Shown piece after piece: positions 32,601 to 64,000 of a stretch of 64,000 bases of DNA. Below the pieces are notes generated by a model. That model made no database searches. It saw only the letters and a program-made list of their open reading frames with translations, and had not been told where the DNA came from. The position numbers and the translations under genes are program-made. Position 1 is the first letter of the stretch. Each line of letters begins with the position of its first letter. This stretch comes from Deltaproteobacteria bacterium (GTDB lineage: Bacteria; Desulfobacterota; Binatia; Bin18), in the NCBI GenBank assembly GCA_016874775.1, contig VGTJ01000005.1, positions 5,232-69,231 of the forward strand. Reading direction: 5' to 3'.

Positions 32601-35600
32601 CAGTTGACCTGGACTTATAGTGCCAACCTGCACACCCGGCGGACGGTCGAGCGCCTGGCTCAGGGGTTCTTTGCCGAGTTAGAAGACATTATTCGGCACT
32701 GCGGCTCAGCCGACGCTGGAGGATATACCGCTTCTGATTTTCCCCTGGCTACAGTGGATGATGCGACGTTGACTTCCCTGTTCCAACGCTGGGGGAACAA
32801 GATTGAGGATGCCTATCAGCTCTCGCCTATGCAGCAGGGCATGATGTTTCACAGTTTGTACGATCGTGGGTCTGGCGATTATGTGATCCAGATGGCGTGC
32901 ACGATGGACGGAGCATTTCAACCCGAGGCGTTTCGCCGCGCCTGGCAACGGGTCCTCGACCGGCATCCGAGCTTGCGTACGGTGTTTCTGCCCGAAGGCG
33001 GCATGGAGGCGCTGCAAGTTGTGCTCCCTGACGTCGCTCTCCCCTGGTACGAATTGGATTGGCGCGGACGCTCCTCTTCACGCGACCATCTCACAGAATT
33101 TCTCCGGGCAGACCGCAGGCAAGGGTTTGTGCTGGACACGTCGCCACTCATGCGTTGCACGCTGATTCGGCTGGAAGAACAGCGCTGGCAGTTTGTCTGG
33201 AGTCATCACCATCTGTTATCGGATGGATGGTGTCTGCCAATTCTGATGCGGGAAGTCTTGCACTGGTATACGGCCTTTATTGGCCATCAGGAGACAGATT
33301 TGCCGCGCCCACGCCCGTACCGCGATTACATAGCCTGGTTAGCGCAACAGGACGTGACGCAGGCCGAAGTCTTTTGGCGAGACACGCTGCGCGGCTTTCA
33401 CGCCCCCACTACCTTTGGCGTAGACCGACCGCCGACTCGCCAGGGGAGTGACACCACCGTACAAGTCGGCATTGGCGAGCCAGCGTCTGTCTATAAGGAG
33501 ATGACACTTGCCCTTGACCCGAGCCTTAGTCAGTCACTGCAGCAGCTCGCGCAGAGCCAACGACTAACACTCAGTGTGATTATTCAGGGAGTGTGGGCCG
33601 CACTCTTGAGTAGGTACAGTGGTGAGCATGACATCCTGTTCGGTGCGACGGTCTCAGGTCGCCCACCTGCGATTGCCGACGTTGACTCGATGGTCGGCTT
33701 GTTTATTAACACCCTGCCAGTGCGGGTGCAGCTCGATGTCACACACACCTGCCTGTCCTTTCTTGCAGCGTTGCAAGAGGCGCAAGTGGCGCGCGAGAGC
33801 TATACCTACACACCCTTGGTGGAGTTACATGCCTGGAGCGAGGTACCACCGCGCCAGCCCCTGTTCGAGAGCTTGGTGGTGTTCGAGAACTACCCAATGG
33901 ATGAGTCGTTGGAGGACCTGGCTGGGGTGCTGTCGATGCGCGACCTGCAACTCCGCGAGCAGACCAATTTTCCGCTCACCTTGACTGCTGCGGTCGCTCC
34001 CCGCATTCCACTCAAGATCGCTTATGACACCACGCGCTTTGATGAGACGGCCATCGCGCGGATGCTTGACCATCTCAAGAATATGCTCAGCGGCTTGGTC
34101 GCCGAGCCACAGCAAGCGCTTGCGACCTGGGCAGCGACGTCACTCATGGGCGAGAAAGAGCGGCTGCACGTGCTGGTGAGCCGCAACCAAACCCAGGTGA
34201 AACATCCCGACCATTGCAAGACGTTCCCAGAGTTGTTTGCGGTTCAGGTTGAGCGCACGCCGTCCCGCACTGCGGTGGTGTTCAGCGATCAGCACCTGAG
34301 CTATGAGCGGCTCAACCAACGGGCCAATCAGCTTGCGCATTACTTGCGTGCCTTAGGGATCGGCCCCGGCGTCTTGGTCGCCCTGTATATGGAGCGTTCT
34401 GTGGAAATGGTGATTGGCCTGCTGGGCATTCAAAAGGCGGGAGGCGCGTATGTGCCGCTGGATCCGACCTATCCGAGCGACCGCATCGCCTTCATGCTGG
34501 AGGATGCGCAGGTCGCGGTGGTCCTTACGCAACCGCAACTCCGTGACGCCTTACCCAAAACCGACGCACATCTAGTGTGCCTGAATGGCACTGGGGATGA
34601 AACAGTCGGTTACTGCGCAGAGAACCCTGTCCCGGTCTCGGGCCCCGATGACCTTGCCTATGTCCTCTACACCTCTGGTTCGACGGGAAGACCCAAGGGG
34701 GTACAAATTACGCAGCGTGCGTTGGTCAACTTTCTGCTATCGATGGCCAAAGCACCGGGACTCAGCGAGGCAGATGTCCTCCTCGGGGTGACAACGATCT
34801 CTTTCGACATTGCCGCGCTTGAACTGTATTTGCCCCTGTTGGTCGGGGCCAGGCTGGTGCTGGTGAGTCGCGACGTGGTCGCCGATGGTTTTCGCTTACT
34901 GACCGTTCTCGAAGAGGCTGGCGCTTCTGTCATGCAAGCCACGCCAGCGACGTGGCGCCTGTTACTAGAGGCAGGGTGGCAGGGGGCACCGCTGCGGCGG
35001 GCACTCTGCGGTGGAGAAAGTTTTGCCCGCGACCTGGCCGCGCAGATGGTAGACCGGCACGTCGAGGTCTGGAACATGTACGGTCCGACCGAGACCACGG
35101 TGTGGTCGTCGATCCATCCAGTCTCACGGCAAGTGAATGACGACGTATCCGAGCCGATTGGTCGTCCCATCGACAATACCCAACTGTACGTCGTCGATCG
35201 CTCTCAGCAACTGCTGCCGATCGGCGTACCTGGCGAATTGCTTATTGGTGGGACCGGCTTGGCCCTGGGCTATCTGGGCCGTCCCGCTCTGACGGCAGAT
35301 AAATTTGTTCCTGATCCATTTGCAACCACGCCCGGTGGTCGTGTGTATCGCACCGGAGATCTGGTCCGCTACCGCGACGATGGCCGCCTGATCTTCCTCA
35401 GTCGCCTTGACCACCAGGTCAAAATTCGCGGCTTCCGCATCGAACTGGGTGAAATAGAAGCAGTCCTCAACCAACGACCGGAAATCAAGCAGGCAGTGGT
35501 CACGACCTGGGAGGCGAGTGCCAACGATCAACGCCTGGCAGCCTACTTGCTCGCGGAGCCAGGCCACACGCTTGAGCAAGACACCGTCTGGACCTGGCTG

Positions 35601-36032
35601 CGGGCTAAGTTGCCAGCGTACATGGTTCCCTCGGAGTTGGTGTTTGTCGATACGCTTCCACTCACGCCGAACGGCAAGCTCGACCGTCGGGCGCTGCCTA
35701 CGCCTCATCGTCAGCAACAGATCGCTTATGTGGCCCCGCGTACGCCGACCGAGGAACACTTGACCCGCATTATGGCAGCGGTGCTGTCCGTGGAACGGGT
35801 CGGGATCACCGATGATTTCTTCGCGCTGGGTGGTCATTCACTCCTGGCCACGAAATTCATCGCGCGTATCAAACACGAGTTACGCATCACCGTGCCCTTG
35901 CCCTTGTTGTTTAGCGAACCGACGATCGACTGGCTGGCAAGTTATATTGACGTCACCCTGTGGGCCGCGCAGCAACACCGTATGGCGCCTGAGATCGCAT
36001 TACACGAAGATGAAGAGGAAATCCGCCTGTGA
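23607..36032 (+). CDS. Trimodular NRPS: C-A(embedded N-methyltransferase)-PCP / C-A-PCP-E / C(DCL)-A-PCP
   Basis: N-terminal docking helix. C1 carries [9 protein letters not shown]. A1 carries [19 protein letters not shown] and YKTGD, with an MT insertion between A8 and A9/A10. PCP1 carries [10 protein letters not shown]. C2 carries [9 protein letters not shown]. A2 carries [19 protein letters not shown] and YQSGD. PCP2 carries [10 protein letters not shown], the type that precedes an E domain. The E domain carries [10 protein letters not shown]. C3 begins [15 protein letters not shown] and carries [11 protein letters not shown], a DCL type. A3 carries [19 protein letters not shown] and YRTGD. 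PCP3 carries [10 protein letters not shown]. The stop overlaps the next start (GTGA). Confidence 0.95.
   Translation: [4141 protein letters not shown]
25831..25861 (+). repeat. 31-nt exact DNA repeat (copy 1) inside A domain 1
   Basis: ctgtcatgcaagccacgccagcgacgtggcg, encoding [10 protein letters not shown], is read identically at 34927-34957 in A domain 3. Confidence 0.8.
26460..27790 (+). other. N-methyltransferase domain inserted into A domain 1, between the A8 and A9/A10 motifs
   Basis: About 430 aa follow the A8 motif [20 protein letters not shown] and precede A10 [13 protein letters not shown]. The insert carries the SAM motif [20 protein letters not shown] and [15 protein letters not shown], matching the NELSxYRYxAV motif of NRPS N-MT domains. 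Confidence 0.8.
31340..32720 (+). other. Epimerisation (E) domain after module 2 PCP
   Basis: [23 protein letters not shown] (E-type HHxxxDG) and [10 protein letters not shown]. It is preceded by the GGDSI-type PCP and followed by a DCL-type C domain ([11 protein letters not shown]). Confidence 0.8.
34927..34957 (+). repeat. 31-nt exact DNA repeat (copy 2) inside A domain 3
   Basis: Identical to 25831-25861. A diverged version of the same block is in the A domain of the next gene (about 38341-38375). Confidence 0.8.
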
Positions 36033-45663: not shown

Positions 45664-46485
45664 CTACGCCAATACGCTCGCAATCGATCGTAGCAGCACG
45701 TCGCGGTCTGAACGTAGGAAGAAATGATCTCCGGGAAACAGATGCAGTCTCGCGACTCCCGTCGTATGTTCTCTCCAGACCTCAACTTCTTGTGGCAACA
45801 CCTCGATATCTTGGCGACCGGCGTACAATATGAGGGGGCAATTGAGTGGTGATTCAGGAACAAAGCTGTAACGGTCGCACATGGTAAAATCCGCACGCAA
45901 CACCGGCAATGCGAGCTTGCGCAGTTCTGGATGTTCAAATACCCCGTCGGGAGTGCCGCCAAGACGACGCACTGCTCGGATGAATTCTCCATCAGGCAGA
46001 CCAGAGAGGGGTTGTCGACGTAACGGTAAATGCGCGGCCCGGTGAGCTGAGAGGAAGAGAGCGCGCGGCAAGGGACCGTCGTGTCGCCGCAAAGCCCTGG
46101 TCAGTTCGAACGCCAATAGCGCACCCATGCTGTGGCCGAACAGGGCGAATGGTTTCTCAGCGTAGGCGAGGATCTCGTGAGCAAGGCGCTCGGCTAACAC
46201 TCCGACATTGGTGTAGAGCGGTTCGCTCAGGCGATTCTCCCGTCCGGGAAGTTGTATTGGGCATACTTCGACCATCTGGGGAAGTGCTGGTCCCCAGGTG
46301 CGATAGATCGACGCAGCGCCCCCAGCAAAGGGGAGACAAAACAGCCGCACTTGAGCCGTTGGCTTGGGGAATGGACAGGTAATCCAAGCGTTGAATTTCG
46401 TCTGTCCCGGTGGTGAAGAGGTCCCTATAGTACGACCAAAAGAGGAATCGGGTAACAAGCGCGGATTTCGTGTGTGCTCTCCCAT
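45664..46485 (-). CDS. Type II (editing) thioesterase
   Basis: RLFCLPFAGGAASIYRTW and FALFGHSMGALLAFEL (GxSxG) are the alpha/beta-hydrolase TE-II pattern. The start is placed at the ATG at 46485-46483, 4 nt after the TGA of the upstream megasynthase (TGAACCGATG). The ORF track's longer 332-aa version would overlap the upstream gene. Confidence 0.85.
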   Translation of the reverse strand: MGEHTRNPRLLPDSSFGRTIGTSSPPGQTKFNAWITCPFPKPTAQVRLFCLPFAGGAASIYRTWGPALPQMVEVCPIQLPGRENRLSEPLYTNVGVLAERLAHEILAYAEKPFALFGHSMGALLAFELTRALRRHDGPLPRALFLSAHRAAHLPLRRQPLSGLPDGEFIRAVRRLGGTPDGVFEHPELRKLALPVLRADFTMCDRYSFVPESPLNCPLILYAGRQDIEVLPQEVEVWREHTTGVARLHLFPGDHFFLRSDRDVLLRSIASVLA

Positions 46486-46489
46486 CGGT

Positions 46490-49400
46490 TCAGGCCTCGT
46501 CACTGAGAAGTTCGTTGAGCTCCGCCAACAGCGCTTGCGCAGTAGCGAGCGGAGAGTTGTTACTGGGTTCGGGTTGCACGGGATTGCGCGGCGGTGAGGT
46601 CGCTGGCTCAATGTCGGCGAAGAATTCACCCAATTGTGTCTCGACGTAATTGACGATGTCATTCACAGTTGGATAGTTAAACACCAGACTCACCGGCAAA
46701 GGCCGTTGCAGGTCGCTGGCAATGGCATTGCGCATTTGTACTGCCATCAAGGAGTCCAAGCCTTGATCGATCAGCGGTTTAGTGAGATCCAACGGCTGGG
46801 AGTCAGAGACACCCAGAACCCGCCGTACGGTATTGTGCACGAAAGTGCTCAGAATATGTTTGCGGTTTTCTGGCAGGGCGAACCTGAGAGGGCCCAGTAT
46901 GTCTGGTGAGCCGGTGCCATTGGTCGTAACCGTCGCTGATACGACGGTACTCAAGCTATGATGGCGATTTTCTGGCAGGGGGTGCTTGAGCTGGCCGAGT
47001 ATCTCCGGTGAGCCGTTTCCGTTGGTTTCGCTCACGACTAATCGAGACGTGCGCATCAGCTCTGCAAACAGGCTGTGTGGCTCAGTGAGTTGACTGAGAT
47101 AGGTTTGCCAATTCCAATTCATGGCGATGACCTGCGTCACGTCACCGGTTACAATCTTCCCCAACAGCGCAAGCCCATCACCAGGTTTGATACCAACAAA
47201 GCCCTGGCGGCTCATGCGCTGCTGAATAGCGGGGTCAGACATCGCTATGCCGATCTGAGCCCACGGTCCCCAGTTGATACTGGTGGCGACCAATCCTTTT
47301 GATCTCCGATAGTGGGCTAGCTCATCGAGAAACGCGTTGGCAGCGGCATAGTTTCCCTGGCCCTGATTGCCCAGCACGGAAGCAGCCGATGAAAACAAGA
47401 CAAAAAAATCTAAGTCAAGGTTCTGAGTATGCTCGTGGAGCAACCAGGCCCCATCGACTTTCGCCGGCAGGACGCGCTGGAAGCGTTGCCAGCTTTGTTC
47501 GATGAGCATACCGTCTTCAATGCCTCCGGCACAGTGAATGACTCCACGTAAACTTGGCAGGCTCTTATGGATCTTGCCGAAGACCTCGGTCATGGCATCG
47601 CGATCGGAGACGTCAGCCTGAACGACATGGACCTTAACCCCCGTCTGTTCCATATCCTTGATGGCTTCTCTCGCTATTTGTGAAATCTGGCGACGAGCCA
47701 CGAGGATCAGGTTTCGCGCCCCCTGTGTTACCAGCCATCCCGCTGTGCGGAGTCCTAAGCCACCCGTACCACCGGTGATGAGGTAACTGGCATCCGCGCG
47801 GACAACTGTCTGATTGCCGCTCGCGAGTTCAGGCTGCTGGAGCAAGCGGGTGACATAGCGAACGCCCTGGCGCCACGCTATCTGCGCCCCTTCATCAGCA
47901 GCGTTGAGGGTTGCCAACAGGTCAGTAGCATCAGGTGCACTCGCTGTCGGGTCGAGGTCGACACAGGTGCACTGTAGTTCAGGGTGTTCAAGCCTCACAA
48001 CTTGACCGAGTCCCCATAACGGTGCCTGCTGCAGGTGGGGGAGGGCAGGTTCAGTGCCCACCGACTGTCCACCACGGGAGATCAACCACAGCCGTGGTTG
48101 GTGAGCCCAGTTCGCCTTGACTAGAGCTTGGACCAGATACAAGGTGCTTGCACACGTGAGAGTTTGGCCTTGGAAGCGCCAATCCTCACACTCGAGGCTC
48201 GATTCGTCTACGCTCCACAAATGCACCACGCCGTCATACGCCCTCGCCTTGCCAACACTCTCTACGAGTAATCGCGTAAAATCCTGCGGCTGCGTTGGGT
48301 TAATACAATAGTCATCGAGCGCATTCACGGAATAGATCTGGCCTGGAGCCACAAGCACGCAACGTGCGCCTTGCGCTCGCAACTGTTGCGCCAGCTGATA
48401 AGCGGTTCCCTGCTGGTCCGCGAAAATCAACCACTGCCCTGGCTTATCAGTAAGTCGGCGTGGATGGTCAACGGCTATCGGCAGCCAGGATCTCTGGTAC
48501 AAGCGGTCATCGGCCGTGACAGGCAGATGTCGCAGGACGGCGTCATGCTTGGCAGGCCGTGCTTCCAAGCCAACGAACTCCAGCGTCGCCTGCCCATGCT
48601 GATCGTATATCCGCACATCGGCAACGAGACGGCGTGTTTCTCCGGCATCACGCAAAGTGACGTGCGCCCACGATTGCGTAGGATCCGGCTCTTGGTGCAC
48701 GCGCACTTCCTCAATGCGGAAGGGGAGCCAGGTCTCACCCTCTGCCAGATCCGCAGTGACCAGTGCTAAGCTCAAGCAAGCATCGAGAAAACCTGGATGG
48801 AGCAGCTTCGCATCGAGCCCTCCCAATGATTCGGGAACGCGGAGCCTGCAGACCGCCTCTCGCTCTCCCCGTCGCAGGCCCTCGAACCAGCGATAACTCG
48901 GGCCTAGGTCGATATGACGAGCGGCCTGGGTAGCGAAGAACGTGTCAACCGAGACATCTTGCTGACAGCGTTGCCAGACGACCTGCTGCGCCTCGACATT
49001 GGCGCGAGTGACTTGATGTCCCCAATGGACGACAGCTTCGACGTGGGTGGACACGCTGGGCTCGGCTTCATATGTTGCCTCGGCAAAGCTCACGAGTTGC
49101 AAGGTCGTGGTTTCTCCTGCTGGCGTGAGTATCACTTGCACAGTCCGTGACTGCCCTTCAGGAATAATGAGCGGTTGCAGGAAGTAGATATCTTTCACCG
49201 CATACGCGCCGTGACCGCGGGTTTGTGAGATGGCCGCCAGGAGCATTGCAATATAGCTGGTGCCAGACACGAGCGTTTTACCGAACACACGGTGATCTTG
49301 CAAGAAAGGTAAAGCCTGTGTACTGAAGTGATTTTCGTAAATCGTGATCTTCAGTGTTGGCAGATGCAGCTTCGTACCCAGGAGTGAGTTTGTGCTGATG

Positions 49401-52400
49401 TGGCTCTGGGAAGAGATATGTACTTCACGGTCTGCGCTGGCCGGTCGATCAAGCCAGTAGCGCTGGCGCTCGAATGGATAGGTCGGTAGTGGGACCCGAC
49501 GGCGCTGATAATCACTGTCGAAACCTGTCCAGTCTACCGGGGCGCACACGGCCAAGCGGCCCAAGCTAAACAAAAGTTGCTGCCAATCCGACTGTCCCTG
49601 ACGCAGACTCGGAAGCCAGACAGCCGTATCCGACTCTACACAGCGCGCCCCCATGCCGAGTAACGTGGGCTTTGGTCCAATCTCGATAAACGTTTGGTAT
49701 CCCCGTTGAGCAAGAGTCTCCATACCAGACCGGAATTGGACAGGCTGCCGGATATGGCGACACCAGTACTCAGGGGAGGCAATCTCGTCGGCTATGACCT
49801 CACCAGTGAGGTTGGACACGATCTCGATCTGTGGCGCCGCATATGCGATCTGTGCAGCAACGCGAGCGAAGTCATTGAGCATGGGCGCCATTAGCGGCGA
49901 GTGGAAGGCATGCGAAGTATTCACTTTCTGTGTTGTAACCCCGGCCTCATGCAATCGACTGCGAATGCTTGCCACTGCCTCGGTGCGACCGGAAATCACA
50001 GTATGGTCAGGACCGTTCTCGGCGGCAATGGCAACCTGACTGCTAAAAGGAGCGAGACATGGCTGAACCTGGGCTTTACTTGCAAACACAACGAGCATCT
50101 CGCCGTCGTGCGGCAATGCCTGCATCAGGCGAGCTCGGTGCGTCACCAACGTGAGTCCGTTCTCCAGGCTGAATACTCCAGCAATACAGGCGGCAACATA
50201 TTCACCGAGACTGTGTCCCATAACGATGGAGGGGGTAATGCCCCACGACTTCCATAGTTGGGCCAGCGCATATTCCAGCGCGAAGAGTGCGGGTTGGGTG
50301 TAGGCAGTTTCGTTGAGGGGTGAGGTACTGGGGTCCGCCGGATACAAGACGTCGAGTAACTGCACGTCGAGCATGGGCCGCAAGATTTCCGCACAGTGGT
50401 CGAGGTGTTGGCGAAAGATGGGCTGGGTCTCATAGAGTTGGCGTCCCATTCCCACACACTGTGATCCCTGGCCGGTAAAGAGAAACGCGATCCGATCGTG
50501 CGCTTGGGTGGTTGCCTGGCCTCGTATCGCGCGGCTCTCGCCGCTGGCTAGTCGGCTGAGGTCGTCGCGCAGTTGTGCAACGGACTCGGCAACCACTGCC
50601 AAACGGTGCTCAAAGAGCTTGCGACCGGTATTGGCGGTGAAACAGATATCCGCCAGTGAGGTTTCGGGGTGATCCGTGAGAAACCGAACGTAGCGGCTGG
50701 CCAACTCCGACAAGGCCGTCTCCGTACGTGCGGACAGCACCAGGATGTGCTGCGGACGTTCTACCGTATTTTCCACCGCCGCCATGGGTGGCGCTTCCTC
50801 AAGAATGACGTGGCTGTTGGTGCCACCAATACCCAACGAGTTCACCCCAGCACGCCGCGGGGAACTTGTCGCTTTCCATGGCGTGGGCGTCGTGGCAACG
50901 TAAAATGGACTGTTCTCGAAGTCGATGCCAGGATTGGGTTTTTGAAAGTGGAGGGTTGGCGGGATCATCTGGTGTTGGAGCGCAAGGACAGTCTTAATGA
51001 AACCGACCATTCCTGACGCGATCTGCAGATGGCCGACATTGGTTTTGACTGAGCCAAGGGCGCAAAATCCGCTTTCCGTGGTGTGCGCGCGAAACGCCTG
51101 GGCCAGAGCATTCACTTCGATCGGGTCGCCCATCTCAGTGCCAGTACCGTGAGCCTCAACAAAGCCTATGGTATCGGGGGCGACATCAGCGATTGCCATC
51201 GCCTCGGCGACAACAGTCGCCTGCCCCTCGGCGCTGGGCGCCATATACCCGACCTTCATCCCACCATCATTGTTGACGGCAGAACCTTTGATGACCGCAA
51301 AGATGTGGTCGCGGTCGCGCACCGCATCTTCTAATCTTTTGAGTAACACCACGCCAACACCACTGCCGAAGATCGTTCCTTTGGCCTGTGCGTCAAAGGC
51401 GCGACAGTGGCCGTCGGGAGAAACAATCATGCCGTCCTGAAACAGATGGCCTGCGCGATGCGGCACTTGCACAGACGATCCAGCCGCGAGGAACATATCG
51501 CCTTCGCCACTGAGGAGCGACTGGCAGGCAAGGTGGATCGCGACCAAGCCGGTGGAACAAGCAGTTTGCACATTGATGCTCGGACCGCGCAGATTGAGTT
51601 TGTAGGAGAGTCGCGTTGTCAGGTAGTCCTTGTCATTGGCGACCATGAGTTGGAAGCCGCCCATCGAGTCCAGGGTCGTTACCCGCAGGCTATCGTGTGT
51701 ATCCAGGGTGTCGCGGTTGGGGTAGACATTGTTGAGTAGGTAGGTGTTCATGCTCGCCCCGGCGTACACACCAATTGCTCCTGGATAGGTAAGCGGGTTG
51801 TAGCCTGCAGTTTCGAGCGTTTCCCAGGCGCACTCAAGTAACAGTCGGTGCTGTGGGTCCATCAATGTGGCTTCGCGGGCGGTATAGCCAAAAAAACCAG
51901 CGTCAAAGCTTTCGACATCCGACAAGAGGGGACTCGCCGGCACATAGTTCGGATGGCGGGCGACGGCCGGATCAATTCCTGAGCCGAGGAGTTCATCCTC
52001 GCTAAAGAACGTAATCGACTCGACTCCTGTAGCGAGATTACGCCAGAAGTCATCCAGGGTGTCGGCTCCGGGAAAGCGACAAGCCATGCCAACCACCGCG
52101 ATCATGCCTTTGTCCTCGGAGACGCGGAAGCGGTTGCGCGCTTGCGCGCGTTCCATCCCGCGTTGTGGTGCTGTGTCTTGAGAGCCGCCATTGCTCAGCA
52201 GTTGGACGAGTGAGTGGATGGTCGGACATTTGAAGAGATCGACCAACGTGAGTTGCGAGCCAAACATCTGCGTGAGCCGAGTGTGGGCCTGGACCAGAAG
52301 CAGCGAATGGCCGCCGAGTTCAAAAAAGTTGTCATGGACCCCAACCTCGGGCACCTCCAGAATGTCCTGCCATACCTTAGCGATCTGCAGCTCCATCTCA

Positions 52401-55400
52401 GACACCGGCACCTGGCGCGCTGCCGCTTCCGGCTCCTGCCCCTGTGCAAGTCTCTGCAACCGATGCACATCGATCTGGCCGGCTGCGGTGAGCGGCATCT
52501 CAGGCAGATGCTGTAGCGCACTATCAGGACGACAGCCGGGATGACGTCCGAACTCGTCCTCGCTAAACAGGCGCTCGTAAAAGGGGTGCTGTTTGTAACG
52601 CTGCTGATGGTGGTACGAACCATGAGTAAAGTCGCGGCGCTCACCGTTGGTGCGGACGAGGGTGCCGTTGATGACAAAGTCGGGATTGAGCCCATTGTCG
52701 CACACCGTCCGCGTAATCTTCGCCGTGATGCGGTCACCCGGAGTGACGTCGATGCCAGGACAGAACACGGGCATATACACTGGCAGCCAACTGTACTCAT
52801 GTTCAATGATGTCGATGACTTCGCAGTCGATGGTCTGCAGGTTCAACCACACGAGGAACCCGTCAAATCGCGACGCCTGATCAATGACCAACTCAATCTC
52901 GTGCTGTTGCGCAAGCGGAATCGTCTGACTGAAGTCCAAATCCTCGAAGACTGCCGAGTTAGAGAGCAGATGGGTGTGCGGGAACTTCTTGATACAGACC
53001 CTGAGATCGAAGGGATAGCCGATCTGGGCAAAGATCTTTTCGGTGTACGTTCCCGGCACCCGATAGAAGCCCGGGTGGGACAACAAAGCATCGGGCAAAC
53101 TGACCGCGGCGATGCGTGTGACACTGCGACTCGGAATCATAACTCCGCCGGGGCGCAGGAAGCGCTGGGCGTCGTTAATCACCACAGCGGCACCTTCGCA
53201 ACCGCCAATCGGTCCGACGATTTCTGAGACACACACATCAACCAACTCGGGCAGTTCGACTGCAGCCGAGTTGCCGTGGAGCATGGTTATGCGATCATCA
53301 AGACCCAATTGTTGAATATAGCTTGAGGCTTGGGCGAACGCCTCGTCGCCCATTTCTATGGCGTAGACCTTGCGCGCTCCGGTCTCAACAGCGAGCCTGG
53401 CTAAAATCGCCTCCTTGCCAGTGCCGATGTCGAGCACGACTTTATCCCGCACGGTTTTTTCCAGCGCGACGCGATATTTACGATTGCGGCGTTCGTCATT
53501 GGCCAAGGCATAGTAGATAAGATCGTCGTAGACATAGTACTCCGCTACTGATGGCCACAGCTCGATCTGCTCACTGCCCGCGCTCTCAGGTTCGCGCATC
53601 TGCACGTACTCATAGTGAGCAACTGCACCGTAGCGATCGACCAGCGGGAGTGCACCCAACTGCTCGCGGGAGACTGATCGATGAGCGGTAAAGAAGAGCG
53701 AGGTCTTCCGTAGCTCCAGCGGACCAGCGAACATCCGAGCCCGGAGGAGTGGGCTGTCGCCATCGAGACCAACCACCAACCGCGCTTCACCGAGTTGCAG
53801 GCCAACGATAATGGAATTGACAATGCGACGTACTGCAACAGGAAGCTGCGCATGGGCAGAGTCGTGCGTATGTGCGGGAGCATTAACGAGGTCGTCCAAC
53901 GCGGCCACGCTCAACCCGTAGACGTGTAGATTACCGCGTTTCTCAAGATGTGAGATGAGTCGATCTTGGAACGCAGAGCTAGCCGCCACCGCGCACCGTC
54001 CACCGGCGTCGAGTACGTGGGCGGCTGAGGACACGGTAATGAATACGCTGCCCCGCTGCTTCCGCAGAAGCTCGACAAGCGACCACACACCTGCCACTTC
54101 TGGAACGAACGTGGTGGCGAGAGTGTCCTTACTCTCCTCGAGCAGCGACCGTTGGGATGGACTTGCCGCGAGGTGAATGGCCCCGTCCAGCGTGGCTCCC
54201 CACTGAGCCAGAGGGCCGTCAAGCGCGCGCTGTAGCGCCTCTGCATCTTGGATGTCGACCGCAGCATAGACACAGTTGCCCGACAGTTGTCGCAGGCGGT
54301 GATATATCGCCTGCCGCTCGTCGGTTGTGCCCTGGTCAGCATGCTCGTCCGTCGGCAACGGCTCTTTTCCTAAGAGGACGAGGCGAGCCTTGAACCGTGT
54401 GAGTAGAAACTCTGCGACATGCGGTCCGATTCCTTCTAGGCCATTGTTCACGAGATAAACACCATGCCGTTGGAAGGGGAGATCGCGGCTCTGTTGGTTT
54501 GTTGACGTAGCGACGGGGACTTGTTGCAGACCCGACACCCAACGTTGGTTTCCTCGATAGGCAACTTCGCGATCGGCTAGCGCTCCCAGGACCTCCCGGG
54601 TAATGGCCGGCGCGTAGGTGTCATACGCTTCTGCAGGACAGTCAATGTGCAGGCAACGTAACCATGAGAGTTCCTCACTCACGGTGTGAAGGAGGCCCGG
54701 AAGTGTCGCCTTGGCGTAGGCGCTCGCCTCGTGAGCCAGGATGGCTTGAGCATTACTGGAAACCGCTAGCAATCGCACGGGCGTATGGGACGCGAGGGCG
54801 GCGAGAGCCTGCACCAAGAAGAGCATGCTGTAGAAGCCCTGCTGCTGTGTGCGCTCAATTCCCTCCCGACTTTCGCTCATTTGCAGATCGGCGTCATAGC
54901 TGAAGAGGTGGACAACGGAGCCTATCTGGACCCCTGAGTCTCTCAGTGTCTCTAACACGATGTGATAGTGCCGTGGGTCCTCGGGTCGGATGGAAAAGTG
55001 AGTTGCGCCGCGCTGGGCAAAGGTCTCGCTAGCCTCAACGACCACGCACGTAACGCCGCGGGCGGTGAGTTCCGCAACCATCTGCTGTCCAAGGCCAAGA
55101 CGATCAAGCAAGACTAGACAGGCTCCTTGCTGCTTCTGCGGTGCTCCCACCAGGTCCTTGCGGTGCCATACCTGCTTGTAGAACCACTCAGGAAGAGTGT
55201 GCTCATTCGCCGCGAACAGATCGAGGCGCTCAAGAATGTCCTGAAACACACCCTGATAGAACTGCTCGACGAGTTTTTTGCGCTGGAGTTTGCCGATCGC
55301 CGTCTTGGGGATGGCATCGCGGTCAAGCGGGATCAAGAAATCCGCTTTGATGCCAAGCTGCTTTGTCAATCGCAACTGAATGGCGCGTAGAAGCTTGCGC

Positions 55401-57514
55401 AGGAACCCGTCGTCCCCATACGGCGTATGGAAGAACACGGCCAACTTCTGCGCGTCACTGTCTGGCGGCCGTACTGCGCAGGCCACGGTAAACGATGCAG
55501 CGACACCGTCGACTTGCTCAACCACCGCTTCAATCTCGTTATTGTAGAAGTTCGCGCCGTTGATAATGATGCCAGCATCCGCTCGTCCGGTGAGCATCAA
55601 CTCGCCACCGGAAATAAAGCCCACGTCCCCTGTGTCGAACCATCCGTTAGCCAGGAACACTTTGTTCGCCTCGGGGTTGTTGTAGTAGCCGGACGATAGG
55701 GCGTCGCCTTTGAGCTGCAGGCGTCCAGTCGTCCCCTCGGGAACGACGCGTTGCTCCTCGTCAACAATGCGCATGGAGACCCCTGGGATGACCGGCCCCA
55801 AGCTGGCAAAGGCGACGCACGTGCTTGCCTCGGGATCGGCGGGTTGGAGCGCGCCACCGAGGGTGTTGCGGTCAATATAATGAAAGGTCAAAGACTTCCC
55901 AGCAGCCGGTTGATGATACGTCACCCCAGAGCCAACCTCGGCCATGCCAAAAGCGGTCTGCAGCACCGAGAGTTGCAGGCCATACGGCGCGAGACTGTCG
56001 AGAAATTCGCTGGTCGTGGTCCGCGTGATTGATTCACCAGCAGTGAGGAGCATTTTGACGCAGGACAGATCCCACTCGCGTTGCCGCTCACCCTTGAGGG
56101 CAGCGCTGACCAGCGAATAGGCAAAATTCGGCGCCCAACTATGCGTGATGCGGTGACGATGGATGAGATCCAGCCAGCGCAGCGGGCTCCCCAACACATA
56201 TTCTTTTGGCGCATAGATCAGCGTGCAACCGAGTACGATACAGCGCAGATGCCAGTCGGAGATGCTGCCAATGTGGTCGAACGGCAGCCAATTGAAGATC
56301 ACCGCTTCGGCAGACTGCTGACACAACAGATTGGTCCCACGCGCGCGCGCCAGGATGCTGCGGTGCGTGAGCATGACTGCCTTTGGTAGCCCGGTGCTGC
56401 CCGAAGACAGGGTGTAAAAAGCAATATCATCGGGCACGGCGCTGTGGATGTTCATATCCGGCGGGTTGTCGCGCAGTTCCTCAAGTGCAGCGAGGCGGGC
56501 GTGAGCCCGTAGGGGAGGTGGCAGCGCCTTGCGGATATCTTCGACTCGGTCCCGAACGGTAAGGAGTAGGGGGCGGTCGAACAGGGTCCAAATGTGATTG
56601 AGATGGTCAAGTGCTCGGCTCTCGCCGTCGTAGGTGAGTGGCATTGGGACAATGACGGGCTCGAATCCCCCAAGCAAACAGCCCCAGAACGCAGGCAGGA
56701 TGTCGTCGTTGCAGTCGAGCTGAAAGATAACTTTGTCGCCAGGCTTGAGGCCATGCTGGCGCAGCCCGCCAAGAACGCGCCGCGCTTCCTGGAGCAACGC
56801 GCCGTAGCTCGTGACCCGCTCGGAACCCTCGCGGTCAATGTAAATGATACAGGCGCTTTCCGGCGCTGCGCACAGCACGGCAGGAAGGACCTGGGGCGCA
56901 TCCGCATGTTGCGGTATGGATTGCCCGTGGCAGAGGGCGGCAGGAACATCGCCTGCACTCTGTGTTATCACAGGAGTCACCGCGAACGCTGCTTCTGCGC
57001 GCTGCGGGACTGGTGCAGGAGGGGACGACTCACGCAACAGCTTGGCAATGTGAACATGTCGCGGCGTATCCGCCCAGTAGCCTGAGACACTAACTACTCG
57101 GTCGATCTCTGGGAGAGCAGCAACCTGTGCTTCCCATGCCGATGCCAGGTCCGCTGACCAAACGGGAACGCGCGCTAGCGCCGCTGCATCGATCGCTCCG
57201 TCCTCAGTCACCGGCAGGTACGCAACTGGCACAACCGCCGAGATGAGTTCTCCAGCGCGCTCGCGAAGCCGAGGCTCAATCTGGTCGAAGTTCTGCTCAG
57301 TCACGATAACGTAGGCCACCAGGTCCCACGTGCCTGGTTGTACCTCTCGCTTGACGACTACGCATTCCTTGACTGATGAGTCACTGAGCAGCGCGGTGGT
57401 AATGGCCTCCAGGTCAACACCGTCACCGGTGACTGGCAGGGCCTCTACTGTTGTCGTTCTCTCCATCTGTACTTGGACGGGCTTGTTGGTATTGACCGAC
57501 TCACGCATCTTCAT
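46490..57514 (-). CDS. Initiation megasynthase: [A-subdomain-like remnant]-FAAL-like acyl-activating domain-KR0-like-PRMT-fold MT-A10-like+carrier protein-KS-AT-DH-KR-ACP
   Basis: ATG at 57514 with GAAGGA just upstream. The acyl-activating domain carries [24 protein letters not shown] and [20 protein letters not shown] (FAAL/FACL type). The carrier protein carries [10 protein letters not shown]. The KS carries [26 protein letters not shown] and HGTGTEMGD. The AT carries GHSLGEY and HAFHSPLM. The DH carries [14 protein letters not shown]. The KR is intact ([29 protein letters not shown]). The ACP carries [10 protein letters not shown]. The protein ends with a docking tail. Confidence 0.93.
   Translation of the reverse strand: [3674 protein letters not shown]
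46610..52108 (-). other. First extension module KS-AT-DH-KR-ACP (KS about 50780-52108; AT about 49535-50497; DH about 48515-49417; KR about 47255-48427; ACP about 46610-46822)
   Basis: The motifs are listed under the CDS. The AT carries the malonyl-type HAFHS. The DH carries HxxxGxxxxS. The KR is fully intact. There is no ER, so the predicted output is an alpha,beta-unsaturated acyl intermediate. Confidence 0.85.
46820..47023 (-). repeat. In-frame tandem duplication (2 x 102 nt, 2 x 34 aa) in the linker just upstream of the module-1 ACP
   Basis: The protein copies are [34 protein letters not shown] and [34 protein letters not shown]. The DNA reads gcgattttctggcag at 46964-46978 and gcggttttctggcag at 46862-46876, 102 nt apart. 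The second copy runs into the ACP helix-I region. Confidence 0.8.
52190..52417 (-). other. A10-like motif plus carrier protein (PCP/ACP) of the loading region
   Basis: [20 protein letters not shown] resembles A10 [14 protein letters not shown]. It is followed by [35 protein letters not shown], a PCP of the kind that follows an A domain. Confidence 0.8.
52535..53617 (-). other. Protein-arginine-methyltransferase (PRMT)-fold SAM methyltransferase domain embedded in the loading region
   Basis: [30 protein letters not shown]...[84 protein letters not shown]. Class I PRMTs read H..ML.D..R...Y ... VLDVGCGTGILS.FAA.AGA.KVYAVE ... V.LP.KVDIIISEWMGY. The layout of the post-I motif, the D/E-rich second motif and the SE..G double-E-like loop matches. 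About 200 aa follow with the size of a beta-barrel subdomain. Confidence 0.65.
53885..55192 (-). other. KR-like (psi-KR plus Rossmann) domain lacking catalytic Lys/Tyr, inserted after the FAAL core
   Basis: It begins [14 protein letters not shown], homologous to WFYLPSWK / WFYLPGWK at the start of the KR regions in the 18883 and 36029 proteins. The Rossmann motif reads [21 protein letters not shown]. At the positions of the catalytic K and Y of the intact paralogue it reads VAGVWSL and [12 protein letters not shown], so neither K nor Y is present. Confidence 0.6.
55280..56917 (-). other. Fatty-acyl-AMP/CoA-ligase-like (FAAL-type) starter-activating domain
   Basis: [40 protein letters not shown] (FAAL LPxxHDMGL-like) and [20 protein letters not shown] (FAAL GRxKDxIIxxGxNxYPxDIE-like) are present. 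NRPS-type A8 would be GRxDxQVKIRGxRIE. The domain lacks the aa-activating A4/A5 patterns. Confidence 0.8.
57155..57397 (-). other. N-terminal extension resembling an adenylation-domain C-terminal subdomain (A8-A10 region) with no preceding A core
   Basis: [26 protein letters not shown] resembles the post-A8 pattern [30 protein letters not shown] resembles A9/A10 (MVPxxFVxLxxLPLTxNGKxDRxAL). It lies upstream of the FAAL-like core. Its translation is supported by the RBS at the ATG at 57514. Confidence 0.45.
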
Positions 57515-57624: not shown

Positions 57625-58785
57625 CTAATGCTGCGCGGGCAGTAACCACTCAGCATTGGTTACAAAAAATTTCTCTGCAGCCGTTTCCCCAAGCCGACTA
57701 ATATGTTCAACAAATTCTTGGAGAGGCCTAGTCCCTCCCTCGGGGTGAGGAAAGTCGCTGGAATAGCAGTAGCATTCTTCGAATCCGTACCGATCAATGT
57801 AGTCGGCAACCGGTTCAAAGCGATAGGGCGTGACACGGACGTTACGGCGGACATAGTCAGAAGGCTTCAGGGAGAGCACTGGAGCCAGACGACCCTTGTA
57901 AATGGCTGCGGTTTGATCGAGGCGTTCGGCCATTGGAGCTAACCAGATAGCTCCCAACTCGATAACCCCGAAGCGAAGTCGAGGAAAACGCTCAAAGACT
58001 CCACCCAGAATAACAGTGGAAAGAAAATTCTGCGGAGCATAGTGAAAAGAGGAGAAGATGTACGTGTTGACCTGCTCGCTTTCTGAGGTCATGTCCATCG
58101 GTTGAAAATTGAGATGATCGACGCCTATCGCCCAGGACTCACTCCCCAGGAAACCCCTTTCTCCTCCGGCGTGCAGGAGGGCAGCGGCGTTCGCTTCCTG
58201 GAGCAAACTCCACAACCTATCCATCTTTTTATGCGCCGGGGACATATTGCCCGGGGGAACTGCGCTGGCCATGACAAAAGCACGGCCACCGGCTTTGAGC
58301 ACCCGCTCTGCCTCGGCTGTGGCGATGTCTATGTCATGGGTATTCAGCAACGCGGCTGCACGGAGGCGCTTTGGATTGTGTTTGCCAAAACCGACCACAA
58401 AGTCATTCCAGTGACGCATCGTTCTGAGTCCGAGCTCATCGTTGGCAAACGTCGCCGCCTGAATCCCTGGGTCGGCGAAGATCAAAGCACGCTCGACCCC
58501 CATGTGGTCAAGGGTTTTCAAGCGGCCGTCGGGACTAAACGCACCTGGAGCGATGCAGCCCTTCAACTGCCATACCGTTTCGTCGGTAAAGACTGAAGAC
58601 TCTCCAGCAGTGAGTTCACTGACTTTTTTTGCTTCTGCTTCGGTCATGGTCTCCATCATCTGATGGAGCATGTTGGTAAAGTGCTTACCCACCTCTCCAG
58701 CCGCGATCTCATACGTTCGTGGACAAGGTTGGATGTGAGAATCGAGATCGTTCAAACGCCCATGAAATCGGCTCATGTCCAGCAT
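57625..58785 (-). CDS. Amidohydrolase-2 family metal-dependent hydrolase/decarboxylase (ACMSD / LigW-like fold)
   Basis: 386 aa. The N-terminal motif is NDLDSHIQ; the second His of the canonical HxH is Gln here. The C-terminal motif YCYSSDFPHPEG matches the family DxPH.E signature. The overall length is right for a TIM-barrel. Confidence 0.7.
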   Translation of the reverse strand: MLDMSRFHGRLNDLDSHIQPCPRTYEIAAGEVGKHFTNMLHQMMETMTEAEAKKVSELTAGESSVFTDETVWQLKGCIAPGAFSPDGRLKTLDHMGVERALIFADPGIQAATFANDELGLRTMRHWNDFVVGFGKHNPKRLRAAALLNTHDIDIATAEAERVLKAGGRAFVMASAVPPGNMSPAHKKMDRLWSLLQEANAAALLHAGGERGFLGSESWAIGVDHLNFQPMDMTSESEQVNTYIFSSFHYAPQNFLSTVILGGVFERFPRLRFGVIELGAIWLAPMAERLDQTAAIYKGRLAPVLSLKPSDYVRRNVRVTPYRFEPVADYIDRYGFEECYCYSSDFPHPEGGTRPLQEFVEHISRLGETAAEKFFVTNAEWLLPAQH

Positions 58786-58806: not shown

Positions 58807-59850
58807 CTACTGCGTTCGTGGTACAGACCCCAAACCGCGACTTTCATCCACTTGATATTCAAAATTTTTCAGGATGCTCGGATCTCTCTTCTGTAATTCC
58901 TGCACCGTCGCTTCAGCGAGTGGAGGAACGACCACGCCTCCAGCGTTGCCAGTGTCCCCAGCAGGAGTACTGAGAATCAATGGCAGCCCGGAGCCATTGC
59001 CCATGACAACCACTTTACTGTTTGCTGACTTGGCCAACTCCAGAGTTGCCTCAATCCCTTTGAACTTCAGGTAGTTCTCGGAAAGTCTTGCTCCGAGAAT
59101 GTCTTGGAACGCTTTAATGCCTTGTGCTTCAATGCGTTTTCTTTCCACTTCTTTTCGTTCACGCTCGATGCGAAAGTCATAGAGGAGCACCATTTGTTCC
59201 TCTTGGTGCTTCTGTTGGACAACCTGCTGCACCCGTTCGGGGAGTATGAGCCGCATGATGCTCAGATCTGCGACTTCGATATAGTGTCGACCAATGTCGT
59301 CTTTGGCACGCTCGAACAAACTGCGCTCAAAGAGATCGGTCTCTCCTACATTGAGCGAATGCTGAGCATACATTGTTTCTGCGTCGAGGGCACTGAGAAT
59401 ATTTCGCGCCGCAGCATCGAGCGTTGGCACAATGAGTGTCTCGATATATTTCGGACCAACTTGTTGGTGCAACGCGCCAACATGATCCTTGCGCACGCGG
59501 TACATCAACCCCATATCCGCCTGGATCTCTAGACCACCGCGGGTGAGGGCGCTGACGCGCCGGGTCAGAATTTGATACCGCAGATTATAAATATACATGA
59601 TGTCGACCGGGAGAATGACGTGAAGGCCTTCGAAATACACATCGCTCGCAGCAGTCATGGTGCCAGAAAATCGCTTCCAGCGTACACCTGCCTGGCCTGA
59701 ATGAATCGAGATAAAAATACGAGGAGCAAAATAGACGAGGAAAAATGCCAGTATTAGTACGGCAAACGTCAGGCCAAAGGAGTGATACGTCAGCCAATCA
59801 CGTATCCAGATCCACGGTCTGCGCCCCCACTGTCTCAGCTTTGCGAACAT
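58807..59850 (-). CDS. SPFH / band-7 (prohibitin/HflC-like) membrane protein
   Basis: An N-terminal TM helix (FGLTFAVLILAFFLVYF) is followed by GQAGVRWKRFSG...YFEGLHVILPVD...YNLRYQILT, the SPFH core. A long charged coiled-coil follows (QKHQEEQMVLLYDFRIERERKEVERKRIEAQ). Confidence 0.8.
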   Translation of the reverse strand: MFAKLRQWGRRPWIWIRDWLTYHSFGLTFAVLILAFFLVYFAPRIFISIHSGQAGVRWKRFSGTMTAASDVYFEGLHVILPVDIMYIYNLRYQILTRRVSALTRGGLEIQADMGLMYRVRKDHVGALHQQVGPKYIETLIVPTLDAAARNILSALDAETMYAQHSLNVGETDLFERSLFERAKDDIGRHYIEVADLSIMRLILPERVQQVVQQKHQEEQMVLLYDFRIERERKEVERKRIEAQGIKAFQDILGARLSENYLKFKGIEATLELAKSANSKVVVMGNGSGLPLILSTPAGDTGNAGGVVVPPLAEATVQELQKRDPSILKNFEYQVDESRGLGSVPRTQ

Positions 59851-59894
59851 GTAAACCTATCTCTTTTCCTTTGATTCGTTGCTCAGTTTGACCG

Positions 59895-61523: not shown

Positions 61524-61735
61524 AGCGGATACTTATCGGCGGCGCAGAGCATGTTCTACAGCTTCCACCACAGAGGTTGATACGCCCGATGGAAAGCGTC
61601 GGCGAACTTCCCCTCTCGACTCTTCCATCAGTCGTCGTAACATCCCGTCACTTACGCATCGAACGAGGCAAGAGATTTCATAGCACATCCCCTCTATGTT
61701 GCCACTGCAATTGGAAGAACGGGCATACCAGCAAC

Positions 61736-63765: not shown

Positions 63766-64000
63766 TGTCTCTTGACCTCTATAGATTTCGTCATGCTGCC
63801 CCCGCCGTCCGCAGGCGTACCCACCCAGGCTAAAACCACAGGGTGCGTATTCCCAAGAATGGCCATGACAGTCTTGGGCATTTAGGAACCTGAAGACTAT
63901 CCTATTAACTTTGTGAGGTCGCTTTCTCGGATTTTGTTTCTGACCCACCCCTACACACTTTTCTTCCTTGGCGCATGTGAGCGGAAGGATCCTCCACGGT

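Follow-up and report, generated by a model that had tools for sequence, protein, structure and literature searches.

An intact ligase, an inactive ketoreductase and a PRMT-fold methyltransferase in the loading region of a predicted microsclerodermin-type synthase

Architecture of the loading region

The stretch of DNA analysed here, referred to as the window, covers 64,000 nucleotides of contig VGTJ01000005.1 from a Deltaproteobacteria bacterium of the lineage Binatia (assembly GCA_016874775.1), and the subject of this report is a minus-strand gene at 46490..57514, a single open reading frame (ORF) of 3674 amino acids in which Pfam recognises a loading region and one polyketide synthase (PKS) module. 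The loading region, residues 1-1775 of the translation (52190-57514 in the ORF list, minus strand), holds in order a remnant of the C-terminal subdomain (Asub) of an adenylation (A) domain, a keto-acid AMP ligase (KAL), a ketoreductase (KR) lacking its catalytic residues (KR0), a pseudo-Asub, a methyltransferase (MT) and an A10-like motif, followed by a peptidyl carrier protein (PCP), which lies at residues 1711-1773 (52196..52384, minus; Pfam PP-binding E=7e-16; GGHS1737L). An extension module of ketosynthase (KS), acyltransferase (AT), dehydratase (DH), KR and acyl carrier protein (ACP) occupies residues 1800-3640 (46595..52117, minus), as assigned by Pfam and by motifs read from the sequence, namely TACST, with its cysteine, and HGTGT in the KS, HAFH in the AT and GLDSL in the ACP. 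The HAFH motif denotes malonyl specificity under the established rule for PKS. This layout is held with high confidence, and the coordinates, segments and order given in a preliminary description of the locus agree with the ORF map, Pfam and a profile of the Asub. ORFs in the other strand or frames at 52195..52806, 52541..53227, 56452..56958 and 56594..57085 are not counted as genes, as all lie wholly within the conserved coding frame.

A genome scan with the MT, followed by domain mapping, yielded 11 near-full-length orthologues (3520-3634 amino acids) with the same domain order, together with the fragment L010 from a second Thiomargarita record. Their hosts are Methylobacter tundripaludum SV96, Niveispirillum, Rhodospirillum, a Proteobacteria metagenome-assembled genome, Pyrinomonadaceae, Acidobacterium, Vicinamibacterales, Acidimicrobiia, Thiomargarita and Limisphaerales. 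The closest, L001 from M. tundripaludum SV96, is 72% identical in the MT and 71% in the KAL. Across L001-L011 (Proteobacteria, Acidobacteriota, Acidimicrobiia and Thiomargarita) identity is 48-71% in the KAL core, 61-72% in the MT and 54-71% in the PCP, on par with the KS and AT, and the Limisphaerales orthologue L041 is more divergent (KAL core 39%).

The adenylating domain, a FAAL-like KAL placed at residues 196-765 (55220..56929, minus) by its matches to PDB entries 6ULX and 4R0M and by its pocket residues, is complete. Its AMP-binding core (residues 218-611, Pfam E=1.8e-46, with weak matches to the C-terminal subdomain at about 650-757) carries A3 as SSGSTGLPK at 370-378, a Gly-Met motif in AFGMAE at 521-526, A7 as GWFDTGD at 624-630 and A8 as GRADAGIIINGANFYNNEIE at 643-662; the position of the usual Asp235 is taken by the hydrophobic Ile415. 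The ligase further possesses its own C-terminal subdomain at residues 643-748 (55271..55588, minus), which runs from A8 to an A10 motif, PKTAIGK(742)LQR, with the catalytic Lys742 present, is kept in all orthologues, and matches positions 1-99 of a 99-position Asub hidden Markov model (HMM) spanning A8 to A10 and built from 54 uninterrupted canonical A domains (independent E-value, i-E, 1.3e-4). The best PDB match of residues 1-1800 is 6ULW, the A-KR-T structure of StsA (E=3.6e-188; query 136-1210 and 1698-1786); the isolated StsA A domain 6ULX aligns end-to-end over query 206-757 (E=5e-124) and the A-PCP didomain of McyG, 4R0M, over query 221-772 (E=5e-134).

The preliminary description had called this ligase a fatty-acyl-AMP ligase (FAAL) whose core is interrupted before A10. 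The label holds at the level of the superfamily, and there only: a solved FAAL, 3PBK, gave a much weaker match in the PDB search (E=7e-48), and FAAL and fatty-acid ligase models, though top-scoring in NCBIfam, in keeping with a FAAL-like and not an amino-acid A domain, stayed far below their cut-offs (PRK09192, 250 against 600 bits; PRK07768, 273 against 572). A paper of 2026 names the clade keto-acid AMP ligases and separates it from FAALs as well as from the canonical A domains (PMC13643306). The interruption did not stand, as the ligase is intact with its own A8 and A10 and is itself an insert within the remains of a canonical Asub. The reading as an interrupted FAAL is an error that annotation pipelines and human readers alike will probably make again wherever an intact keto-acid ligase nests in a decayed A domain.

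The surrounding remains can be placed with the help of StsA, in which an intact A domain and KR are accompanied by a small pseudo-Asub that is attached to the KR and receives its remaining parts from N-terminal elements (PMC13643306). In modules of the C-Ax-KAL-KR-T type, Ax is a canonical A domain in varied states of decay, often with only A6-A10 left, and the published model of origin has a keto-acid ligase recruited into a canonical A domain, which then decayed (PMC13643306). In the window protein the Asub HMM finds three Asub-like units where the model of StsA and the Ax remnant expects them. Residues 29-113 (57176..57430, minus), recognised by the HMM, Pfam and alignment of the orthologues, form a degenerate, near-complete canonical Asub remnant that covers profile positions 10-99 of 99 (i-E 1.7e-9), is matched weakly by Pfam AMP-binding_C on residues 40-96 (E=0.029) and ends in an A10-like LPVTEDGAIDAAAL with Ala for Lys. 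There follows a helix-hairpin, PEIDRVVSVSGYWADTPRHVHIAKLL, at residues 118-165 (57020..57163, minus), the N-terminal piece of the split pseudo-Asub by conservation and by the 6ULW alignment, which begins at query residue 136 and chain residue 31; the orthologues retain this segment, as do two comparator modules, L026 and L037, and its role in the fold would be that published for StsA (PMC13643306).

Beyond the KR, alignment with L026 and L037 delimits a further part of the pseudo-Asub at residues 1240-1312 (53579..53797, minus), which closes near residue 1310 with an A9-like strand, DRYGAVAHYEYVQMRE, and whose counterpart in L026 and L037 matches HMM positions 41-99. The pieces before the ligase and after the KR are both present and homologous and may together form one Asub-like fold, the post-KR piece alone being of low confidence (predicted local distance difference test score, pLDDT, 38-60) in an AlphaFold2 model of residues 1197-1790 that resolves only the MT and PCP. 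The A10-like loop, LPEMPLTAAGQID, lies at residues 1666-1685 (52460..52519, minus), as placed by the HMM (positions 79-98, weak alone at i-E 0.3) and by alignment with PvdL and LgrA, in which LPEMPLTAAGQIDVHRL at residues 1670-1686 aligns contiguously with the genuine A10 and PCP. Its catalytic Lys is replaced by Gln1680, and the same column is found in 12 proteins and both comparators and is never Lys. The ancestry that the preliminary description had suspected in this motif is thereby real and not a chance similarity; the segment is homologous to A10, belongs to the pseudo-Asub rather than to the ligase, and is, together with the N-terminal Asub-like piece, a remnant of a degenerate canonical A domain. 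The earlier proposal of recombination between A-domain modules is plausible and agrees with the published recruitment of the KAL (PMC13643306).

The pseudo-ketoreductase, with structural and catalytic subdomains, occupies residues 790-1215 (53870..55147, minus; Pfam and alignments) directly after the ligase, where the 6ULW alignment continues to residue 1210. The fold is readily recognised (Pfam KR E=2.7e-26; Beta-ketacyl_N, the structural subdomain, E=1.8e-13). When it is set against the KRs of L026 and L037, those of the 11 orthologues and the KR of its own extension module, the catalytic Lys is Glu1139, the Tyr is Val1176 and TGGxGGxG has become NNGLEGIG at 1023-1030. Equivalent losses at all three sites occur in every one of the 11 orthologues, whereas the sites are intact in L026 and L037, and the preliminary report of a KR without its catalytic Lys and Tyr is hence confirmed. 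Identity to L001 is 45-53% in KR0 and 39-48% in the pseudo-Asub pieces, against 71-72% in the KAL, MT and PCP, which is the pattern expected for a scaffold and not for a catalyst. The loader KR would therefore be a conserved pseudo-enzyme kept as a scaffold, and may offer a clean natural case of a dead KR retained for architecture over several phyla.

The embedded methyltransferase

The MT occupies residues 1316-1653 (52556..53569, minus) and combines a Rossmann domain for S-adenosylmethionine (SAM) with a beta-barrel in the fold of the protein arginine methyltransferases (PRMTs), as the preliminary description had stated and as Pfam, HMMER, AlphaFold2 and Foldseek each support. Pfam returns PRMT5 (E=7.8e-7), with PRMT5 and class-I methyltransferase matches spanning 1325-1460; HMMER aligns the sequence with PRMT6, PRMT8, CARM1 and PRMT1, down to E=1e-15 for PRMT6, with both glutamates of the double-E loop in register. 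In the AlphaFold2 model the MT has pLDDT >94, and Foldseek against the PDB places PRMT6, CARM1 and PRMT2 on top (E~1e-23, ~335 columns, target TM score 0.70-0.77). The motifs read LDIGTG at 1361-1366, YAIE at 1384-1387, SEIVGPIGGCEG for the double-E loop at 1430-1441 and YSW at 1574-1576, and in a 23-sequence alignment (A1) both double-E glutamates, the Trp of the THW-like loop and the SAM-site residues are invariant.

Comparison with L037 (Hyella) and L026 fixes the site of insertion. Their post-KR regions have no MT in this place and read straight through CDFVPI-AQMLLTEMGEIDR and CDLIKL-DAMPLTETGEIDR, respectively, so that in the window protein the 338-residue MT and its short linkers lie between the A9-like strand and the A10-like loop. 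In canonical hosts among the nonribosomal peptide synthetases (NRPS; P0005, P0033, P0040 and P0053) the MT stands between the post-A8 hairpin and A9, and in L026 it follows the N-terminal helix-hairpin and precedes the KAL. The MT cassette hence appears to be mobile, with at least three sites of residence (A8/A9 of active A domains, before a KAL, and A9/A10 of a pseudo-Asub), and this mobility could be useful for megasynthase engineering. The L026 module itself (3931-9261 of CAXUIG010000082.1, uncultured bacterium) consists of an Asub remnant and helix-hairpin, MT, KAL, intact KR, A10-like segment and PCP, and probably makes an O-methyl-4-hydroxyphenyllactate unit.

The contexts of the family come from a genome scan with the MT and from domain mapping, since a protein database search returned only short or fragmentary proteins of <=732 amino acids, with no full-length orthologue among them. 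The scan found relatives encoded at 468 loci, the best 80 of which were kept for their architectures: C-A-[MT]-PCP, C-A-[MT]-[NMT]-PCP with an additional N-methyltransferase (NMT), stand-alone proteins with a TubC-type docking domain in Nostocales, and the PKS loader. The window MT is 54-61% identical to MTs embedded in A domains, mostly of cyanobacterial NRPS modules. Among the codes of the canonical hosts, the Tyr/Phe-type D-A-x-.-[I/V]-A-A-V-C occurs most often, at 32 of 57 loci; its position 239 is for the most part Ser (Tyr-type DAS.[IV]AAVC), the alternatives being Trp, Ala and Glu. Neighbour joining groups the MTs of PKS loaders into a single clade, which is nested among those hosted by Tyr-type A domains.

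Known products lend further weight. The first MT of LynB3 has ~30% similarity to arginine methyltransferases and is presumed to O-methylate Tyr (PMC10127204), and the embedded first MTs of HcaA and VatN, whose fold was not stated, were assigned as Tyr O-methyltransferases followed by an NMT (PMC10949194); these published modules for N,O-dimethyl-Tyr are matched by the C-A-MT-NMT-PCP (e.g. L023) and C-A-MT-PCP layouts found here. In addition, a Floridanema module for floridanemamide with a software-predicted N-MT yields O-methyl-homotyrosine by NMR (PMC13252402), and five loci (L047, L053, L056, L057 and L063, from Floridaenema and Phormidium LEGE 05292) share a matching [A-MT-PCP-E]-[C-A-PCP-TE] end. 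Given the codes of the host A domains, the structures of these products and the position of the loader clade among Tyr-type hosts, phenol O-methylation is the function best supported for the MT, which would act in this way by analogy.

The wider family also includes other forms. Non-Tyr-like host codes are DVE.LGCIS after a FAAL-like loader, DAF.LGVTF and DVE..AIT, at three groups of loci: L046, L048, L051 and L078 (Tolypothrix, Nostoc and Scytonema); L027 and L062; and L039, L075 and L079. Seven loci in Nostocales (L031, L064, L066, L067, L069, L072 and L077) encode proteins of ~440 amino acids with an N-terminal TubC-type docking domain and the MT, which suggests trans-acting versions that dock onto NRPS. 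Stand-alone homologues of 33-38% identity, annotated as L11 methyltransferase or PRMT, occur in Actinoplanes, Streptomyces and Nocardia (P0086, P0092, P0096, P0099 and P0104), and those included in alignment A1 (P0086, P0092 and P0096) retain both double-E glutamates.

The surrounding gene cluster

Genes on both strands of the window, from 18 to 63948, look like a hybrid PKS/NRPS cluster of the microsclerodermin type. The published set of msc genes and its biosynthetic logic comprise a beta-amino-alpha-hydroxy acid, an Asn-derived pyrrolidone, sarcosine (Sar), D-Trp, Gly, GABOB (gamma-amino-beta-hydroxybutyric acid), the amidohydrolase MscE and the type II thioesterase (TE) MscJ (PMC6163206, PMC12559470). 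The corresponding set is present here, with a PKS loader, an aminotransferase-monooxygenase (AMT-MOX) module, Asn plus C2, KS-AT-KR, Sar, an epimerization (E) domain, Gly, a terminal module of Gly followed by KS-AT-KR-ACP-TE that would form GABOB, amidohydrolase and type II TE. The plus-strand genes include, in part, ..DH-CMT-ER-KR-ACP (with C-methyltransferase and enoylreductase), KS-AT-KR-ACP and KS-AT-KR-CP; KS-AT-ACP-aminotransferase-luciferase-like monooxygenase-C-A(Asn-like)-PCP, where C is a condensation domain; C-A(Gly)-NMT-PCP-C-A-PCP-(E)-C-A(Gly)-PCP; and C-A(Gly)-PCP-KS-AT-KR-ACP-TE. Their A-domain codes comprise one Asn-like ..EVG and three Gly-type DIL...(I/V)W; a Trp code was not recognised among the codes of the window, and part of the PKS lies beyond it. 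The ACP, class-III aminotransferase and luciferase-like monooxygenase lie at 12102-15635 (plus strand), between AT and C in ORF 9477..18878. Such an AMT-MOX cassette is linked to 3-amino-2-hydroxy acids in the microsclerodermin and the cyanobacterial Athmu and Atpoa pathways. At 26487-27806 (plus; ORF 23607..36032) an N-MT of the Methyltransf_12 type interrupts a Gly-type A domain, the sarcosine module, so that with the PRMT-fold MT of the loader the cluster holds both kinds of A-domain-embedded MT. The ORF at 18-4430 (plus) starts in mid-DH, its residue 1 matching position 43 of the Pfam PS-DH profile, and CMT-ER-KR-ACP follow; its gene, with KS-AT, probably either reaches beyond the window on the left or is broken at that edge.

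Two further genes flank the PKS on its own strand. Upstream, at 57625..58785 (minus), an amidohydrolase-fold gene (Pfam Amidohydro_2) encodes an MscE-like protein whose best PDB match, at E=1.9e-19, is the platensimycin-pathway protein PtmU3 (6OMP), with ACMSD-type decarboxylases ranking behind it; orthologues 64-72% identical adjoin the PKS on its upstream side in L001 and L005, and one stands farther upstream in L003. Downstream, at 45664..46485 (minus), lies a stand-alone, type II TE-like and MscJ-like thioesterase (Pfam Thioesterase E=1.4e-46), orthologues of which follow the PKS in L001, L002, L003 and L005. The ORF listed for it, 45664-46662, shares 173 nt with the end of the PKS, and its start is probably the ATG at 46485, 5 nt past the PKS stop, which gives 273 amino acids and agrees better with the alignments of the orthologues. 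Upstream of the loader operon, at 58807-62239 (minus) and 62539-63948 (minus), are SPFH/Band7, ABC (cyclic-peptide-exporter type) and DUF697 genes; these recur near the orthologous PKS in L002, L003, L005, L007, L009 and L011, and the 469-amino-acid ORF at 62539-63948 (minus) had no Pfam match. The contig is also present in a JGI metagenome (sample 3300020193).

The cluster of L001 is msc-like with a rearranged gene order; immediately upstream of its PKS lies the orthologue of g36029, the last NRPS/PKS gene of the window, with 65% identity over 1646 amino acids, and MbtH, phosphopantetheinyl transferase (PPTase) and further PKS genes lie downstream. A self-contained pathway of amidohydrolase, PKS and TE, leading to a 4-oxo-2-enoic acid or butenolide, was rejected on the strength of these neighbours. 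The tundrenone pathway was likewise rejected for the M. tundripaludum orthologue, on the structure of tundrenone and on the msc-matching content of the cluster. In the paper on kasumigamide, Methylobacter is named solely for a transporter match. It is predicted that M. tundripaludum SV96 and other non-myxobacterial clusters make microsclerodermin-like peptides with a 4-methoxyphenyl terminus.

Proposed function and relation to known systems

Taken together, these data suggest that the loading region probably acts as initiation module in a hybrid PKS/NRPS line of a microsclerodermin-like type and descends from the keto-acid A-KR-T modules of depsipeptide synthetases. The substrate may be read from the KAL pocket, whose positions were anchored on published StsA residues (Ile306 for Asp235, and Gly414-Met415 for the Gly-Pro of A5; review PMC11253843). 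The pocket reads I-G-S-W-L-A-A-S-G, is conserved across the orthologues and is identical at 8 of 9 positions to that of L026, a module with an active-type KR and an MT of the same family, which has Val for Leu at 299. The McyG pocket, V-G-V-W-V-A-A-S-G, is nearer to it than those of StsA or L037; the McyG type is that of a phenylpropanoid or Phe, and the StsA and L037 type is aliphatic. In canonical A domains, Ser at position 239 separates the Tyr code from the Phe code. Ser239 of the KAL parallels this change from Phe to Tyr, and a 4-hydroxyphenyl acid is thus the likely substrate.

This model proposes that the KAL would adenylate a 4-hydroxyphenyl acid (4-hydroxyphenylpyruvate or 4-hydroxyphenylacetate) and thioesterify it onto Ser1737 of the PCP, whereupon the tethered acyl group may be O-methylated at its para-hydroxyl by the MT with SAM. 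No ketoreduction would take place at the loader. The 4-methoxyphenyl starter would then pass to the KS for malonate extension, reduction and dehydration, and the chain would move onward to the downstream PKS and NRPS genes. That the loader supplies a 4-methoxyphenyl starter seems likely on balance. A 4-methoxystyrene was used in a synthesis of the microsclerodermin B type, which indicates a 4-methoxyphenyl terminus (PMC12559470). Compounds of the microsclerodermin B type end in this group, and a phenol O-MT within the loader would provide exactly that.

Several observations weigh against this model, and they concern the oxidation level of the acid as well as the chemistry of methylation. The acid loaded could be 4-hydroxyphenylpyruvate or 4-hydroxyphenylacetate: membership in the KAL family, the Gly-Met motif and L026 favour an alpha-keto acid, whereas the dead KR, together with feeding data in which only the alpha and beta carbons of Phe were incorporated into microsclerodermin (PMC6163206), favours a starter at the level of an arylacetate. 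With regard to methylation, no assayed member of the MT family was found in the literature, O-methylation being drawn from product structures and co-occurrence; both double-E glutamates are invariant; and some hosts have non-aromatic-looking A codes (DVE.., DAF.LGVTF). In PRMTs the double-E loop serves the N-methylation of guanidinium.

A possible, though doubtful, variant has 4-hydroxyphenylpyruvate loaded and its alpha-keto group kept, hence the dead KR, to enter the chain as a 1,2-dicarbonyl or to serve as a handle for removal of one carbon on the way to the arylacetyl starter, perhaps with the PtmU3-like protein. It would be consistent with the membership of the ligase in the KAL family, with its Gly-Met motif and its Ile in place of Asp235, with the near-identical pocket of L026, where an active KR implies a keto acid, and with the amidohydrolase-fold neighbour, which is similar to the diiron monooxygenase PtmU3 and is retained next to the PKS. 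McyG loads phenylpropanoids, yet Adda requires a starter at the level of phenylacetate. The feeding data also fit, as they show that of Phe only the alpha and beta carbons are incorporated (PMC6163206). However, no chemistry is established for taking out the thioester carbon once the acid is loaded, the role proposed in print for MscE is cyclisation of the pyrrolidone (PMC6163206), and the dead KR would be accounted for more simply if 4-hydroxyphenylacetate were loaded directly. The stronger form of this proposal, in which the alpha-keto thioester is deliberately kept and its keto group serves one-carbon excision to an arylacetyl starter, possibly by the PtmU3-like neighbour, is improbable. 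If true, it would provide a widespread and experimentally accessible module for the puzzle of how phenylpropanoids become phenylacetate starters in Adda, microsclerodermin and related beta-amino acids; the module is in any case a way to study the origin of arylacetate starters.

It is also improbable that the MT does something other than phenol O-methylation, such as PRMT-like N-methylation of the guanidino or amino group of an arginine-derived keto acid, or C-methylation beside the alpha-keto group. The type I PRMT fold, the invariant double-E loop and the Trp of the THW-like loop would suit the former, as would relatives in A domains with Glu239 or an Ile-like code, and for the latter, on chemical grounds, the beta-protons of an alpha-keto thioester would be acidic. 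However, the KAL pocket resembles that of McyG and has no acidic residue for a guanidinium, the MT clades closest to the loader occur in Tyr-type A domains, modules with this MT yield O-methyl-Tyr or O-methyl-homoTyr (PMC10127204, PMC10949194, PMC13252402), and side chains of the microsclerodermin type carry para-methoxy and no N-methylguanidine.

There is very little to be said for a single FAAL-type domain split between A8 and A10 by KR0 and MT and completed by LPEMPLTAAGQID: the motif is truly homologous to A10 and directly precedes the PCP, and FAAL and fatty-acid ligase models score best in NCBIfam, but the ligase owns a full C-terminal subdomain with Lys742, aligns full-length with the stand-alone StsA A domain and McyG, and is followed in every orthologue by an A10-like motif that lacks the Lys, while the same layout minus the MT has been solved as an intact A domain with a pseudo-Asub (6ULW; PMC13643306). 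Decay of the loading region as a whole, with the PKS primed otherwise, is scarcely credible: the KR and Asub remnants are clearly degenerate, but the KAL, MT and PCP retain all catalytic motifs and, in L001-L011, are as conserved as the KS and AT.

The model of an O-methylating loader built on a KAL can be compared with several known systems. The preliminary description did not recognise the arrangement; however, the KR insert of cereulide and valinomycin synthetases that it cited belongs to the same family, and the best PDB match, StsA, is a cereulide-synthetase homologue. Both of the parts are known: a split pseudo-Asub accompanies the KAL-KR-T, and an Asub can harbour a PRMT-like, presumed O-MT (as in LynB3, PMC10127204). 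What is new is their variant form. For the combination of a dead KR, an MT at the A9/A10 site of a pseudo-Asub and use as a PKS loader, no description was found in the searchable literature, which does not include the primary StsA and msc papers.

With the A-KR-T modules of StsA, CesA and Vlm1 (6ULW) the window protein shares an intact FAAL-like KAL, a hydrophobic residue for Asp235, the Gly-Met motif, a PKS-type KR straight after the ligase, and Asub-like pieces before the ligase and from KR to PCP. It differs in that its KR lacks the Lys, the Tyr and the NADPH motif, and so would not share the competence of those KRs; in that the post-KR pseudo-Asub holds an MT of 338 amino acids; in a longer N-terminal remnant that is nearly a whole Asub; and in that the module feeds a KS instead of a C domain and has a predicted aromatic substrate. 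The MT-interrupted A domains of LynB3, HcaA, VatN and floridanemamide have an MT of the same family in an Asub directly upstream of the carrier protein, with the SAM and double-E motifs conserved. There, however, the host is an active canonical A domain with the MT at A8/A9, whereas in the window it is a pseudo-Asub without an A core or the A10 Lys, the MT lies between A9-like and A10-like elements, and activation falls to a separate KAL. Type I PRMTs (PRMT6, CARM1 and PRMT1) have the same two-domain fold and aligned double-E glutamates at ~20% identity, with THW changed to YSW in the window MT, which unlike them is embedded in a megasynthase and would, by analogy, act on a carrier-bound phenol and not on protein arginine.

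The ligase of McyG (A-PCP-KS-AT-CM-DH-KR-ACP; 4R0M) is about as close as that of StsA, and McyG likewise has a similar pocket, a loader fused to the first PKS module and an aromatic starter, but in its didomain the A domain leads straight to the PCP, where the window protein has KR0, MT and pseudo-Asub pieces between. Finally, MscA, described in a review as having an 'ACL' domain and a phenylacetate starter (PMC6163206), is likened to the window protein by that description and by cluster content rather than by sequence. The myxobacterial microsclerodermins have an unsubstituted phenyl group, and the MT embedded in the window loader would account for the para-methoxy variant.

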